Assembly (NCBI RefSeq): GCF_009931435.1
Contig: NZ_CP043414.1
Length of the DNA: 64,000 bases
Reading direction: 5' to 3' (one strand)
DNA from: Escherichia coli
Lineage (GTDB): Bacteria > Pseudomonadota > Gammaproteobacteria > Enterobacterales > Enterobacteriaceae
Part shown: positions 3,667 to 61,680 of the stretch, one piece after another
Numbering within the stretch: position 1 is the stretch's first letter
How the letters are laid out: the number at the start of each line of letters is the position of its first letter
Notes under the pieces: generated by a model
Database searches by the model: none
Told to the model about the DNA's origin: nothing
The model's input: the letters and a program-made list of their open reading frames with translations, nothing else
Program-made: the position numbers and the translations under genes

Positions 3667-3754
3667 GAAACCGGTTTCACAAAATCATGAATAGTTGATA
3701 CTGATTAAGCAAGAGAGTTAATTGCTCATTTTTTATATTTGTGAAACCGGTCAC
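3667..3754. promoter_or_regulatory. Divergent ascF/ascG control region with two GalR/LacI-type operator-like palindromes
   Basis: Perfect palindrome GAAACCGGTTTC at 3667-3678 and related GTGAAACCGGTCAC at 3741-3754, in the intergenic region between divergent ascF and ascG. AscG is a LacI/GalR-family repressor. Confidence 0.35.
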
Positions 3755-3837
3755 CTGAATATTTTTCCCGCTGCTTGCGCAAGGACAATCAGCCAACGGT
3801 GCAGTACACTGCGTTGATTGCGTGTAAAGGGATGAAA

Positions 3838-4851
3838 ATGATGACGACGATGCTGGAAGTGGCGAAGCGCGCCGGGGTTTCAAAAGCGACCGTTTCCCGC
3901 GTGCTTTCAGGTAATGGCTACGTCAGCCAGGAAACTAAAGATCGCGTGTTTCAGGCGGTGGAAGAGAGCGGCTACCGCCCAAATTTGCTGGCGCGCAATC
4001 TGTCAGCGAAGAGTACCCAGACGCTGGGGCTGGTAGTGACCAACACGCTTTACCACGGCATTTATTTTAGTGAATTACTGTTTCATACCGCGAGAATGGC
4101 GGAAGAGAAAGGGCGTCAGCTGCTATTGGCAGATGGCAAACATAGCGCCGAAGAAGAACGCCAGGCGATTCAGTATCTACTGGATCTGCGCTGCGACGCC
4201 ATTATGATTTACCCGCGCTTTTTAAGCGTGGATGAGATTGATGACATCATTGATGCACACAATCAGCCGATAATGGTGCTCAATCGCCGCCTGCGCAAAA
4301 ACAGTAGCCATAGCGTCTGGTGCGATCATAAACAGACCAGCTTTAACGCCGTGGCAGAGTTGATAAACGCCGGACATCAGGAGATTGCTTTCCTTACCGG
4401 TTCGATGGATTCCCCCACCAGCATTGAACGCCTTGCCGGATATAAAGACGCGCTGGCGCAGCATGGTATTGCACTCAATGAAAAACTTATCGCTAACGGT
4501 AAATGGACGCCTGCCAGCGGGGCCGAAGGGGTAGAAACGTTGCTCGAACGTGGGGCTAAATTTAGCGCGTTAGTTGCCAGTAACGACGATATGGCGATAG
4601 GTGCGATGAAAGCGTTGCATGACCGTGGTGTAGCGGTGCCGGAGCAAGTATCGGTTATTGGATTTGATGATATCGCAATTGCCCCCTACACCGTTCCGGC
4701 GCTCTCCAGCGTAAAAATTCCGGTGACTGAGATGATTCAGGAAATAATTGGGCGGCTGATATTTATGCTCGATGGTGGTGCTTACACACCGCCGAAAACC
4801 TTCAGCGGAAAACTAATCCGCCGCGACTCACTCATTGCTCTTTCGCGATAA
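3838..4851 (+). CDS. ascG: LacI/GalR-family transcriptional repressor of the asc operon
   Basis: Track ORF 3775-4851 (TTG at 3775). K-12-like N-terminus MTTMLEVAKRAGVSKATVSRVL begins at 3838/3841; AAGGG Shine-Dalgarno 7 nt upstream of 3838. HTH plus periplasmic-binding-like fold. Confidence 0.88.
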   Translation: MMTTMLEVAKRAGVSKATVSRVLSGNGYVSQETKDRVFQAVEESGYRPNLLARNLSAKSTQTLGLVVTNTLYHGIYFSELLFHTARMAEEKGRQLLLADGKHSAEEERQAIQYLLDLRCDAIMIYPRFLSVDEIDDIIDAHNQPIMVLNRRLRKNSSHSVWCDHKQTSFNAVAELINAGHQEIAFLTGSMDSPTSIERLAGYKDALAQHGIALNEKLIANGKWTPASGAEGVETLLERGAKFSALVASNDDMAIGAMKALHDRGVAVPEQVSVIGFDDIAIAPYTVPALSSVKIPVTEMIQEIIGRLIFMLDGGAYTPPKTFSGKLIRRDSLIALSR

Positions 4852-24274: not shown

Positions 24275-24460
24275 ATGCTGATTCTGACTCGTCGAGTTGG
24301 TGAGACCCTCATGATTGGGGATGAGGTCACCGTGACAGTTTTAGGGGTAAAGGGCAACCAGGTACGTATTGGCGTAAATGCCCCGAAGGAAGTTTCTGTT
24401 CACCGTGAAGAGATCTACCAGCGTATCCAGGCTGAAAAATCCCAGCAGTCCAGTTACTAA
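24275..24460 (+). CDS. csrA: Carbon storage regulator (RNA-binding global regulator)
   Basis: 61-aa [64 protein letters not shown], full-length match to CsrA. Confidence 0.97.
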
Positions 24461-24774
24461 TCTTTCCGCGTCTCATCTTTATCGGTGAGACGCACCCTCA
24501 AAATTCCTCCTTCACTCCATTGTTTTTTCGCTTTACTCCCGTTCATTCAACTTTAGTCTCCATTTTTTGCATTACTGCTATCTGTCAGACCTCCGTTTTT
24601 CTGTTGATAAAACACTCTTTTTGACGTTTTTACAGACTAATTGAGTGTGAATTGTGCAAACGATAAAAGTGTGGGAAAAATTGTTTGACTTATAAGTCTC
24701 AGAAAGTAATATGTGCGCCACGCAGCGACGATGAGCGATAAACAAGTTCTTCGAAGCACTCGTAAGAGGCGTGT

Positions 24775-24867
24775 GGTGAGGTGGCCGAGAGGCTGAAGGC
24801 GCTCCCCTGCTAAGGGAGTATGCGGTCAAAAGCTGCATCCGGGGTTCGAATCCCCGCCTCACCGCCA
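24775..24867 (+). tRNA. serV: tRNA-Ser (anticodon GCU)
   Basis: 93-nt sequence GGTGAGGTGGCCGAGAGGCUGAAGG...CCGCCUCACCGCCA with long variable arm and anticodon loop CCUGCUAAG. Confidence 0.93.
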
Positions 24868-24870
24868 TTT

Positions 24871-24947
24871 GCATCCGTAGCTCAGCTGGATAGAGTACTC
24901 GGCTACGAACCGAGCGGTCGGAGGTTCGAATCCTCCCGGATGCACCA
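24871..24947 (+). tRNA. argV: tRNA-Arg (anticodon ACG)
   Basis: GCATCCGTAGCTCAGCTGGATAGAGTACTCGGCTACGAACCGAGCGGTCGGAGGTTCGAATCCTCCCGGATGCACCA; 3 nt after serV. Confidence 0.93.
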
Positions 24948-25082
24948 TATTCTACGAAATCTTCAGCAATGAAGGTGTCGAAGAGGTGGCGGTACTAACC
25001 GCAAGCACCAGGGAGGATAACGTTGCTTTAGCAACGGCCCGAAGGGCGAGCCGTAAGGCGAGTAATCCTCCCGGATGCACCA
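24948..25082 (+). repeat. Spacer repeat unit ending in a tRNA-Arg 3'-terminal fragment (aatcctcccggatgcacca)
   Basis: About 135-nt unit after argV; its last 19 nt duplicate the T-arm/acceptor 3' end plus CCA of tRNA-Arg without the rest of the tRNA. Confidence 0.6.
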
Positions 25083-25146
25083 TCTCTTACTTGATACGGC
25101 TTTAGTAGCGGTATCAAAAAATCTGCAGTAAAGTAAGTTTCCCGAT

Positions 25147-25223
25147 GCATCCGTAGCTCAGCTGGATAGAGTACTCGGCTACGAACCGAGCGGTCGGAGG
25201 TTCGAATCCTCCCGGATGCACCA
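25147..25223 (+). tRNA. argY: tRNA-Arg (anticodon ACG)
   Basis: Identical 77-nt tRNA-Arg copy; spacing to neighbours (276 and 140 nt) matches the argVYZQ arrangement as I recall it. Confidence 0.9.
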
Positions 25224-25286
25224 TCTCTTACTTGATATGGCTTTAGTAGCGATATCAATATCAGCAGTAAAGTAAGTTCTCCCGAT

Positions 25287-25363
25287 GCATCCGTAGCTCA
25301 GCTGGATAGAGTACTCGGCTACGAACCGAGCGGTCGGAGGTTCGAATCCTCCCGGATGCACCA
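25287..25363 (+). tRNA. argZ: tRNA-Arg (anticodon ACG)
   Basis: Identical 77-nt tRNA-Arg copy. Confidence 0.9.
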
Positions 25364-25498
25364 TATTCTCCGAAATCTTCAGCAATGAAGATATCGAAGA
25401 GGTAGCGGAATTAACCGCAGGCACCAGGAAGGATAACGTTGCTTTAGCAACGGCCCGAAGGGCGAGCCGCAAGGCGAGTAATCCTCCCGGATGCACCA
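25364..25498 (+). repeat. Spacer repeat unit ending in a tRNA-Arg 3'-terminal fragment
   Basis: Near-identical copy of the 24948-25082 unit after argZ. Confidence 0.6.
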
Positions 25499-25561
25499 TC
25501 TCTTATTTGATATGGCTTTAGTAGCGGTATCAATATCAGCAGTAAAGTAATTTCTCCCGAT

Positions 25562-25638
25562 GCATCCGTAGCTCAGCTGGATAGAGTACTCGGCTACGAA
25601 CCGAGCGGTCGGAGGTTCGAATCCTCCCGGATGCACCA
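25562..25638 (+). tRNA. argQ: tRNA-Arg (anticodon ACG)
   Basis: Identical 77-nt tRNA-Arg copy; last gene of the operon. Confidence 0.9.
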
Positions 25639-25771
25639 TATTCTCCGTAATCTTCAGCGATGATGGTATGGAAGAGGCGATGGTAATCACCGTCTGCTCC
25701 AGGGAGGATAACGTTGCGGCAGCAACGGCCCGAAGGGCGAACGCCAGTGAGTCATCCTCCCGGATGCACCA
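25639..25771 (+). repeat. Spacer repeat unit ending in a tRNA-Arg 3'-terminal fragment (diverged copy)
   Basis: Third, more diverged copy after argQ, ending tcatcctcccggatgcacca. Confidence 0.55.
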
Positions 25772-25918
25772 TCTTCTGCAAAAAATCCCCTTCAAAAATA
25801 TTTCATTTCTAAATAACTATTTTATCCATTTCCTGAATATTCTTCTCCTTCGCCATCAGCGACAAAATCAAGCAATTACGCTAAAGTAGCGTCATATTTT
25901 TCGACTTGCGAGAAGACC

Positions 25919-26485
25919 ATGTACGAGCGTTATGCAGGTTTAATTTTTGATATGGATGGCACAATCCTGGATACGGAGCCTACGCACCGTAAAGCGTGGC
26001 GCGAAGTATTAGGGCACTACGGTCTTCAGTACGATGTTCAGGCGATGATTGCGCTTAATGGCTCGCCCACGTGGCGCATTGCTCAGGCGATTATTGAACT
26101 GAATCAGGCCGATCTCGACCCGCATGCGCTGGCGCGTGAAAAAACAGAAGCAGTCAGAAGCATGTTACTCGATAGCGTCGAACCACTCCCCCTTGTTGAA
26201 GTGGTGAAAAGCTGGCACGGACGTCGACCAATGGCTGTAGGAACGGGGAGTGAAAGCGCCATCGCTGAGGCACTGCTAACGCACCTGGGATTACGCCGTT
26301 ATTTTGACGCCGTCGTTGCTGCCGATCACGTCAAACATCATAAACCTGCGCCAGACACATTTTTATTGTGCGCGCAGCGTATGGGCGTGCAACCAACGCA
26401 GTGTGTGGTCTTTGAAGATGCCGATTTCGGTATTCAGGCGGCCCGTGCTGCAGGCATGGACGCTGTGGATGTTCGCTTGCTGTGA
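25919..26485 (+). CDS. yqaB: HAD-superfamily sugar phosphatase (fructose-1-phosphatase)
   Basis: 188-aa ORF with HAD motif I FDMDGTILDTEP. Confidence 0.9.
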   Translation: MYERYAGLIFDMDGTILDTEPTHRKAWREVLGHYGLQYDVQAMIALNGSPTWRIAQAIIELNQADLDPHALAREKTEAVRSMLLDSVEPLPLVEVVKSWHGRRPMAVGTGSESAIAEALLTHLGLRRYFDAVVAADHVKHHKPAPDTFLLCAQRMGVQPTQCVVFEDADFGIQAARAAGMDAVDVRLL

Positions 26486-28547: not shown

Positions 28548-28620
28548 AAAAAGGCCACTCGTGAGTGGCCAAAATTTCATCTCTGAATTCAGGGATGATG
28601 ATAACAAATGCGCGTCTTTC
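28548..28620 (-). ncRNA. micA: MicA (SraD) small regulatory RNA
   Basis: Minus strand reads GAAAGACGCGCATTTGTTATCATCATCCCTGAATTCAGAGATGAAATTTTGGCCACTCACGAGTGGCCTTTTT, the MicA sequence as I recall it, with its terminator hairpin GGCCACTCACGAGTGGCC and T-run; located between gshA and luxS. Confidence 0.85.
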
Positions 28621-53194: not shown

Positions 53195-53420
53195 AGAGCG
53201 GCTCCGCCTTATCCGGCCGACATAGATTTATTCCTGTTCACGTACAGATTGTCGGATGCGGCGTAAACGCCTTATCCGACTTGGATTCTCGTAGGCCGGA
53301 CAAGACGCGAAGCGTCGCCTCCGGCATGGTGCGCCGAATGTCGGATGCGGCGTAAACGCCTTATCCGACCTACATTTCCGTAGGCCGGACAAGACGCAAA
53401 GCGTCGCCTCCGGCATGGGT
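53195..53420. repeat. Cluster of REP/BIME elements including two tandem ~80-bp units
   Basis: gtcggatgcggcgtaaacgccttatccgac...gtaggccggacaagacgc(g/a)aagcgtcgcctccggcatgg occurs twice (about 53251-53328 and 53340-53417), preceded by a third partial copy. Confidence 0.6.
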
Positions 53421-61604: not shown

Positions 61605-61680
61605 GGCCCTTTAGCTCAGTGGTTAGAGCAGACGACTCATAATCGCCTGGTCGCTGGTTCAAGTCCAGCAAGGGCCACCA
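61605..61680 (+). tRNA. ileY: tRNA-Ile2 (anticodon CAU, lysidine-modified type)
   Basis: GGCCCTTTAGCTCAGTGGTTAGAGCAGACGACTCATAATCGCCTGGTCGCTGGTTCAAGTCCAGCAAGGGCCACCA; cloverleaf with anticodon loop CTCATAA; adjacent to ygaQ as in K-12. Confidence 0.9.

Follow-up and report, generated by a model that had tools for sequence, protein, structure and literature searches.

Tail pairing and conservation of the tRNA-linked repeats raV, raZ and raQ in the serV-argVYZQ operon of Escherichia coli

The spacers of the tRNA operon serV-argV-argY-argZ-argQ, studied here in a 64,000-nucleotide stretch of Escherichia coli DNA (the window; contig NZ_CP043414.1 of RefSeq assembly GCF_009931435.1), carry three repeat units whose last nucleotides repeat the 3' end of tRNA-Arg. 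These units are raV, raZ and raQ of the enterobacterial tRNA-linked repeats (TLRs), the family to which the 178-bp tyrT repeats also belong, and the arg-operon repeats are thus already known and not novel. An earlier note on this DNA had taken the tRNA-derived tail of each unit for an orphan fragment; it is instead the 3' strand of a conserved helix, paired with a strand that lies upstream in the same unit. Taken as a whole, it is probable that the units are known TLRs that form folded modules, are cut from the precursor in the manner of a tRNA 3' end and have a role that is weakly selected at most. What is added here is the helix between the tail and its upstream strand, the co-variation of that helix with tRNA identity and with species variants of the tRNA, the occurrence of Arg units across Enterobacterales, and the finding of one to four units per strain.

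The array is made up of the following features.

24871-24947, plus strand: argV, tRNA-Arg(ACG) (ARAGORN and Rfam; orthologous annotation).
24948-25082, plus strand: raV, TLR unit of 135 nt, directly after argV (fold z -5.6; RtT 33.8 bits).
24951-24984, plus strand: raV 5' hairpin region with a GCAA loop (folding).
24989-25002, plus strand: raV second hairpin (folding).
25005-25078, plus strand: raV 3' domain closed by GCACCAGGGAGGAU / AUCCUCCCGGAUGC, enclosing three small hairpins.
25021-25036, plus strand: raV small hairpin cgttgc-ttta-gcaacg, within the 3' domain.
25064-25082, plus strand: raV orphan tail, the last 19 nt of tRNA-Arg (T-loop A58 to CCA), 3' strand of the closing helix.
25083-25146, plus strand: short spacer of 64 nt, 5' leader of argY, homologous to 25224-25286 and 25499-25561.
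25147-25223, plus strand: argY, tRNA-Arg(ACG) (ARAGORN and Rfam), with a short spacer directly 3' and no unit in this strain.
25224-25286, plus strand: short spacer alone, 63 nt, in the argY-argZ gap, an "empty site" from which body and tail are precisely absent.
25287-25363, plus strand: argZ, tRNA-Arg(ACG) (ARAGORN and Rfam).
25364-25498, plus strand: raZ, TLR unit of 135 nt, architecture as in raV (RtT 27.8 bits).
25480-25498, plus strand: raZ orphan tail, 19/19 match to the tRNA-Arg end.
25499-25561, plus strand: short spacer of 63 nt, 5' leader of argQ (repeat comparison).
25562-25638, plus strand: argQ, tRNA-Arg(ACG) (ARAGORN and Rfam).
25639-25771, plus strand: raQ, terminal TLR unit of 133 nt, hairpin loop ggca (RtT 27.9 bits).
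25753-25771, plus strand: raQ orphan tail, 18/19 match, its first base being C.

The four tRNA-Arg(ACG) genes are identical, and each unit starts at the base right after the CCA of argV, argZ or argQ. The units of about 135 nt described earlier at these three places were recovered at 135, 135 and 133 nt, with pairwise identities of 93% (raV/raZ), 81.5% (raV/raQ) and 81% (raZ/raQ). That each of them ends in the last 19 nt of tRNA-Arg is exact for raV and raZ, while in raQ 18 of the 19 positions agree: the exact sequence AATCCTCCCGGATGCACCA occurs six times, at the four tRNA-Arg ends and at the ends of raV and raZ, and once more with a single mismatch at the end of raQ (CATCC...), compared with no copy in shuffled sequence. 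Likewise, the stems of the hairpin cgttgc-ttta-gcaacg are identical in all three units, but the loop in raQ is ggca and not ttta. The second hairpin of raQ carries compensatory changes (GAUGGU/ACCGUC). The spacers are indeed built from repeated units, as the note proposed, although a long internal spacer proves to be a unit followed by a separate short spacer of 63-64 nt, and the short spacers are 88-95% identical to each other. A 54-nt repeat family (D3), consisting of the tail and the start of the short spacer, is common to both exact orphan tails and to the real end of argY. The argY-argZ gap holds the short spacer alone and therefore looks like a site from which body and tail are precisely absent. 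Neither ARAGORN nor the Rfam tRNA model calls any of the units as a tRNA, and a reading of them as tRNA genes or pseudogenes was rejected, since there is no detectable cloverleaf and the tRNA-derived part is limited to the last 18-19 nt.

From the viewpoint of annotation such repeats are ordinary. According to PMC8144298, TLRs were first seen by Egan and Landy in 1978, and in 1999 Rudd catalogued 22 copies at ten K-12 loci. They are defined by a 3' stretch of 18-19 bp identical to the upstream tRNA or rRNA (PMC8144298). The units of the window lie immediately downstream of stable RNA genes within a tRNA operon, their tails match the end of the upstream tRNA in 19/19, 19/19 and 18/19 positions (0 expected by chance), and the core of their body is common to the K-12 Tyr, Lys, Pro and 5S units. 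They can be given the names raV, raZ and raQ because the strain table of PMC8144298 names the arg-operon copies: its supplementary list includes, for the 22 TLRs, the deletion "Δ(argY/Z/Q, raQ/Z/V)". The operon has its genes in the same order as in K-12 and its units at the same places as raV, raZ and raQ there, and the K-12 family could be re-derived from sequence as three Arg, four Tyr, five plus one Lys, three to four Ser and one Pro unit together with the rrnB unit. Direct alignment with the four K-12 tyrT/tyrV units gave a shared core of the form GA.A.CGTTGC-loop-GCAACG.CCCGAAGGG.GA-(small hairpin)-GA.T.ATCC, which is then followed by the tRNA-specific tail.

The Rfam family RtT (RF00391) also matches raV, raZ and raQ, with 27.8-33.8 bits and E values of 3e-5 to 0.012. 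Two of the matches cover the full 130-position model, and raV searched alone scored 33.8 bits over positions 46-130. None of the three reached the gathering threshold of 45 bits. Control scores in K-12 were 133-137 bits for Tyr, 101 for Pro, 47-60 for Lys, 36-46 for Ser and 29-31 for Arg units. The 3' half of RtT aligns convincingly to the arg units (cmscan), and the consensus structure of that half, conserved hairpins inside a helix that uses the tRNA-derived tail, is present by cmscan, by folding and by pair counts. The arg units fall below the threshold and lack a middle module of about 50 nt, and RefSeq therefore leaves these spacers unannotated. The blank spacers in turn leave room for antisense open reading frames (ORFs), a false tRNA call and a doubtful gene, tpr, all considered below.

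Folding of each unit, proposed in the note as a check, gave minimum free energies of -60 kcal/mol for raV (z -5.6), -53 for raZ (z -5.0) and -52.2 for raQ (z -2.9), all better than shuffled sequence and with the same architecture. The common plan is a 5' hairpin with a GCAA or GCGA loop, a short second hairpin and a closed 3' domain. The latter is closed by GCACC-A-GGGAGGAU paired with AUCCUCCC-GG-A-UGC and holds three small hairpins inside. In the upstream strand of the closing helix, an acceptor-like GCACCAG (GCAUCCG in the tRNA) is fused straight to the 5' strand of the T stem, GGAGG. The predicted closing helix resembles a coaxial stack of acceptor and T stem in which about 55 nt replace the T loop and the discriminator A and CCA are left free. 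The raV domain keeps its fold inside a 353-nt argV-raV-argY precursor; in the minimum free energy structure of that precursor the two identical tRNAs mispair, which is an artefact of the repeat, and only the autonomy of the unit fold is used here.

The first 8 nt of the units, UAUUCU(A/C)C (24948-24955, 25364-25371 and 25639-25646), can also pair with GGGAGGAUA, the partner strand of the tail. This alternative pairing of the 5' leader could be a two-state arrangement or a coincidence.

The comparison of species carries most of the argument for the helix. The note had asked whether the repeats exist beyond this strain, and they do: among the matches listed, Arg units of 129-138 nt were found in Escherichia, Citrobacter, Enterobacter, Superficieibacter, Pseudocitrobacter, Pseudescherichia, Cedecea, Serratia, Brenneria and Hafnia, ten genera in which their number and position vary within the serV-arg operons. 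In 22 Arg units from these ten genera, 96.6% of the cells for the 26 pairs of the 3' domain hold a base pair, compared with 28-51% when the partners are slid by 1-3 columns, and there are 11 compensatory cells, a number reached by 0 of 500 shuffles. The compensatory changes comprise the T-stem-like pairs of Hafnia, replacement by A-U of pairs at the helix base (Serratia and Pseudescherichia), and GC/CG/AU swaps in the third small hairpin. The two central hairpins are invariant and are therefore uninformative, either way, on selection for structure. Alignment of the 22 units with MAFFT and RNAalifold recovered the 3' domain only, the 5' halves being too diverged for sequence alignment, and these were assessed by per-sequence folds and shuffles; in most genera their hairpins are kept with unrelated sequences.

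The tail follows the tRNA variant of the species, being ATCTTCCTGGGTGCACCA in Hafnia and CCTCCTGGATGC in Serratia oryzae and Pseudescherichia. In Hafnia, where the tRNA-Arg itself ends in ATCTTCCTGGGTGCACCA, the unit has this tail together with a matching upstream GGGAAGAT. The upstream strand also tracks the tail from one tRNA type to another: it is GGGAGGAT in Arg, GGGGAAGGAT in Tyr, GGGGGGAT in Ser, AGAGGAT in Pro and CGTG(A/T)AGGAT in Lys units. Measured as the longest perfect helix, the tracking works for Arg and Tyr; for Lys the measure is confounded by the tRNA's own acceptor strand within the span measured and by an internal mismatch, and among the three Pro isoacceptors by the similarity of their tails.

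The main alternative is that the units are neutral recombination debris, that is, selfish or passenger repeats that are homogenised by unequal crossing-over and gene conversion, whose RNA has no selected structure or role and whose tail matches the tRNA through conversion only. Against this stand the compensatory changes across genera in the closing helix and hairpin 4. Moreover, the upstream strand does not correspond to any one contiguous stretch of a tRNA, and gene conversion from the tRNA therefore cannot maintain the pairing, yet the strand tracks the tail in Hafnia, in Serratia and across tRNA types, a match that from the sequences argues for selection on pairing. The length of the units is held at 129-138 nt although their 5' half has diverged beyond alignment, and the unit body is present in 5357 of 5426 complete E. 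coli genomes. (It was found at 1-8 places per genome, figures that do not equal the number of Arg units and are unreadable as such because the conserved core cross-hits the Lys and Tyr TLRs.)

The variation of the units within E. coli favours the neutral view. Seven Escherichia loci always have four tRNA-Arg genes, with one, two, three or four units: O157:H7 has one, K-12 and the window have three, and a unit is present in other E. coli strains at the argY-argZ site that is empty here, so that presence and absence are polymorphic at every internal spacer. As unit number varies at a constant four tRNA-Arg genes, the units are individually dispensable and precisely exchanged, as recombination or conversion between the tRNA end and its orphan copy would bring about. 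Units also decay imprecisely. The argZ-argQ spacer of O157:H7 strain FRIK2533 (102 nt; positions 1460-1561 of the stretch examined, L012) is an internally deleted unit, with about 40 nt of unit start fused to the short spacer and with neither core nor orphan tail, and decayed tails occur in Pantoea stewartii. In addition, the strain table of PMC8144298 includes a strain, TSS107, deleted for all 22 TLRs, which are thus presumably not essential, and the same paper states that TLRs "thus far ... no known function". On balance we consider it unlikely that the units are neutral debris.

The operon is preceded by a sigma-70-type promoter-like site (24685-24712, plus strand; TTGACT-16-TAATAT), a consensus match upstream of serV, itself a tRNA-Ser(GCU) gene at 24775-24867 on the plus strand (ARAGORN and Rfam; orthologous annotation). 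The site is the sole such match within 24300-26000, and with 2.2 expected in shuffles the single match is weak alone. No terminator-like site was found on the plus strand between the tRNA genes of serV-argVYZQ. Because there is one upstream promoter-like site and no intergenic terminator-like site, we infer that the arg units are transcribed within a single serV-argVYZQ precursor. The situation at some other TLRs was noted in passing: at K-12 lysQ, lysV, serX and proK a strong intrinsic terminator hairpin (e.g., AAAAAGCGCCCTAAAGGCGCTTTTTT) lies between the tRNA and the TLR body, and those TLRs would therefore be transcribed by read-through only.

Within such a precursor, a processing scheme can be proposed by analogy, and by analogy alone the note's idea of a 3'-processing-like site that yields a spacer-derived RNA is plausible. 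Since the end of a unit looks like a tRNA 3' end and is followed by an identical U-rich trailer, RNase E would be expected to cleave directly 3' of the orphan CCA, 3' exonucleases would then trim back to that CCA, a discrete RNA of about 130 nt would be released from the unit, and the short spacer would be left as an ordinary 5' leader for RNase P. This proposal draws on rtT RNA, on RrB, on the published E. coli pathway of tRNA 3' maturation and on the identical trailer. The 171-nt rttR of K-12 begins 7 nt past tyrV, and its 3' end coincides exactly with the orphan CCA in the tyrT unit. The long form of RrB has its 3' end 3 nt past its 5S-derived repeat, an end that the authors of that study ascribe to RNase E (PMC8144298), and PMC2190699 has RNase E cutting 1-3 nt after the encoded CCA with exonucleolytic trimming thereafter. 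The trailer that follows the orphan CCA, TCTCTTACTTGATA, is the same as that after the real CCA of argY (family D3). The comparative evidence, in which the tail forms one side of a helix that resembles a tRNA end and varies with the tRNA of the host, offers a concrete and testable model of processing.

Several observations weigh against this reading of folded, processed units and have to be set beside the evidence above. The pseudo-acceptor helix is imperfect in E. coli, GCACCAG facing CGGAUGC with two mismatches or bulges. The closing helix is missing from the minimum free energy fold in 5 of 27 Arg units, and in at least three of those five it is the 5' leader UAUUCUCC that takes GGGAGGAUA as its partner. 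Across genera, structure in the 5' half is no more than moderate (mean z -1.5, with 10 of 25 below -2). For the arg units the open-access literature yielded neither expression nor end-mapping data, and no paper in it combined argV/argY/argZ with "spacer" or argQ/argZ with "sRNA", and the processing scheme rests on other TLR subfamilies. The dispensability of individual units in E. coli fits a neutral passenger as well as it does a weakly selected module, and the strain without any of the 22 TLRs fits a neutral passenger equally. Our guess is that weak selection keeps the arg units as a structural or processing module and that they do not serve as regulators.

A regulatory role was nonetheless weighed, the note having suggested that the units might act as processing decoys. 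In such a scheme the released RNA, or that segment of the precursor, would titrate RNase P, RNase E, 3' exonucleases, the CCA-adding enzyme, Hfq, CsrA or small RNAs (sRNAs). An acceptor/T-stem-like helix with ACCA does resemble a minihelix, a known type of RNase P substrate, and the operon adjoins csrA. There are analogues as well, as the 3' external spacer of leuZ sponges sRNAs and the TLRs of the rrn operons, RrA, RrB and RrF, bind Hfq and CsrA in vitro (PMC8144298). The TLRs of tRNA operons, on the other hand, are predicted not to bind CsrA, all 19 of them having scored below 0.01 in the prediction of CsrA binders, and the starvation phenotype originally claimed for rtT was later retracted (PMC8144298). 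The rtT RNA is full-length at 171 nt, and the homologous Tyr unit is therefore not cut at the pseudo-acceptor. A decoy or sponge role, RNase P cleavage at the pseudo-acceptor included, is quite improbable for the arg units.

A related and more general idea is that TLRs are selected, structured mimics of the acceptor/T-arm end of tRNA that act at the RNA level, which is possible but doubtful. If it were true, each unit would be a minihelix with an expanded "T loop" and discriminator-CCA, kept by co-evolution with the resident tRNA; it might serve either as a co-transcriptional insulator and processing module between identical tandem tRNAs or as a substrate that competes for the enzymes reading tRNA 3' ends (RNase E, RNase P, RNase T/PH, the CCA-adding enzyme), and the short Arg form would be a distinct subfamily that Rfam-based annotation has missed. 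TLRs sit in highly expressed tRNA and rRNA operons, are wide in Enterobacterales and evolve so as to preserve base pairs, and their function is an old question.

How widely the core is distributed was seen in a core-pattern scan of 100,044 species genomes, which gave at least 120 loci and at least 163 core matches. Among the matches listed, the upstream tRNA was Lys-UUU at least 29 times, Arg-ACG and Tyr at least 25 times each, Pro-UGG at least 14, Pro-CGG at least 9 and Pro-GGG at least once, and other core matches carried 5S-type tails. The taxa among them were many Enterobacterales, Orbales (Gilliamella, Zophobihabitans) and Oceanospirillales (Marinobacterium, Amphritea).

This distribution also bears on the thought that the units are scars of attachment sites, left when a phage or island integrated in the tRNA 3' end and duplicated its last ~19 nt, as P4-type integrases do. 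Elements that integrate into tRNA genes typically leave such a duplicated tRNA 3' end, reaching from the T loop to the CCA, and four of five matches to viral contigs lie within a few hundred bases of the contig end, beside prophages. The body, however, is only about 115 nt long, with no integrase remnant and no conserved ORF, and the same core stands behind at least six tRNA species (including Arg, Lys, Tyr and three Pro) and behind 5S rRNA, a pattern that a site-specific integrase would not produce. Moreover, 50,697 phage records gave only a Salmonella chromosome contig and one partial match, the matches to plasmids were almost all to megabase "plasmids", i.e., chromosomes, and the core was present in only 5 of 2.9 million viral contigs. 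An origin as an attachment-site scar, or from a phage or plasmid, was rejected as very improbable, given one small body behind many tRNAs and its near-absence from phages, plasmids and viral contigs.

Two side observations came from these searches. A predicted viral contig of IMG/VR, UViG_3300036824_000115, has two TLR cores with tRNA-Pro(GGG)-type tails well away from its ends (3791-3949), and in the stretch examined no tRNA was detected 5' of them on the same strand; this could be a prophage boundary that splits a tRNA-Pro/TLR locus. The second is that the two-hairpin core CGTTGC-N-GCAACG-N-CCCGNAGGG was also seen in Pseudomonas, Alcanivorax, Alloalcanivorax, Marinobacter, Stenotrophomonas and Pectobacterium (in one stretch, L048, at 3710-3809), at places where no upstream tRNA was detected on the strand concerned. 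These cores are mostly followed by a third hairpin, TGGC.GCCAGGGATGGC..CCAT, and an A-run (in Stenotrophomonas by CGCATGCCATGGATGGCATGCG and no A-run), and sometimes stand in tandems of about 75 nt. They may be a related, undescribed family or a free-standing ancestor of the TLR core.

Could the units encode small proteins, whether arginine-rich peptides similar to tpr, the "protamine-like protein" of K-12, or the products of real minus-strand ORFs? The K-12 tpr gene is annotated inside the first tyrT repeat, and the raQ ORF begins MRQQRPEGR, which resembles RRQRPEGR in tpr. The shared peptide is a mere translation of the conserved hairpins, however; raZ has no plus-strand ORF of 30 or more amino acids, raV and raQ use different starts and frames, loops of 3-5 nt (occasionally more) shift the frame among family members, and the variation preserves base pairs. 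The minus-strand ORFs, of up to 138 amino acids (e.g., 25179-25499 and 25379-25795), run antisense through tRNA genes, and RefSeq has no coding sequence at their positions in its annotation of the same locus in two genomes, which bears out the note's view of them as artefacts. With frames inconsistent, variation base-pair-preserving and the antisense ORFs unannotated, a protein-coding reading was rejected as hardly credible.

K-12 tpr (b1229; MRSFDQGSTRAPARERCRRQRPEGRSAQR; positions 1288-1377 of the stretch L003) is itself a translation of the conserved TLR hairpins and looks like an annotation artefact of the repeat; in the window raQ gives a tpr-like ORF (25714-25812, plus strand) and raZ gives none. 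ARAGORN also called a minus-strand "tRNA-Arg(tcg)" at 24891-24962, which covers argV in antisense, reaches into the start of raV and is almost certainly a false positive that arises from the self-complementarity of the tRNA.

The surroundings of the array are those of K-12, in the order csrA–serV-argV-argY-argZ-argQ–yqaB, with csrA upstream and yqaB downstream. Megablast matched the stretch in 5425 of 5426 complete E. coli genomes, at best with 99.3% identity and in most others with 90-97%. Over the whole window, Rfam and ARAGORN further found the MicA sRNA, a naRNA4 (CssrE, REP-derived) element and a tRNA-Met(CAU), ordinary chromosomal features of the region, listed here in positional order only.

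28549-28620, minus strand: additional Rfam/ARAGORN feature of the window.
53294-53370, minus strand: additional Rfam/ARAGORN feature of the window.
61605-61680, plus strand: additional Rfam/ARAGORN feature of the window.

Among known systems, the K-12 TLRs raV, raZ and raQ are the same thing as the units described here, with the same locus, positions, tail copy and core, and the window differs from them by a few substitutions and 1-nt length changes. The closest relative beyond these is rtT RNA of tyrT-tyrV. Its 3' half is homologous, with two conserved hairpins, a variable third hairpin and GAGTAATCC followed by the tRNA tail, and it has the same closing helix between tail and upstream strand and the same position right after the tRNA. 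Compared with rtT, the arg units are a short form without the middle module of about 50 nt that holds the T-arm-like piece GGTTCGAC, and their 5' half is unrelated; of the Arg and Tyr units, only the latter have a documented stable RNA product. RrA, RrB and RrF, downstream of 5S in rrnA, rrnB and rrnD, have the same core hairpins (CGTTGC-GAA-GCAACGGCCCGGAGGG) and their ends, like those of the arg units, repeat the 3' end of the stable RNA that precedes them, but there the repeated sequence is that of 5S rRNA and the location is between two terminators (PMC8144298). Unlike the TLRs at lysQ, lysV, serX and proK, the arg units have no terminator between tRNA and body. The 3'ETS-leuZ RNA likewise comes from a part of a tRNA precursor outside the tRNA itself and could outlast processing, but it has no copy of a tRNA end, is not a repeat family and acts by pairing with sRNAs. 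Finally, the attachment sites of phages and islands are likewise direct repeats of the tRNA 3' end from the T loop onward, whereas in the arg operon no mobile element separates the repeats and the body of about 115 nt is the same as in units behind many other tRNAs.

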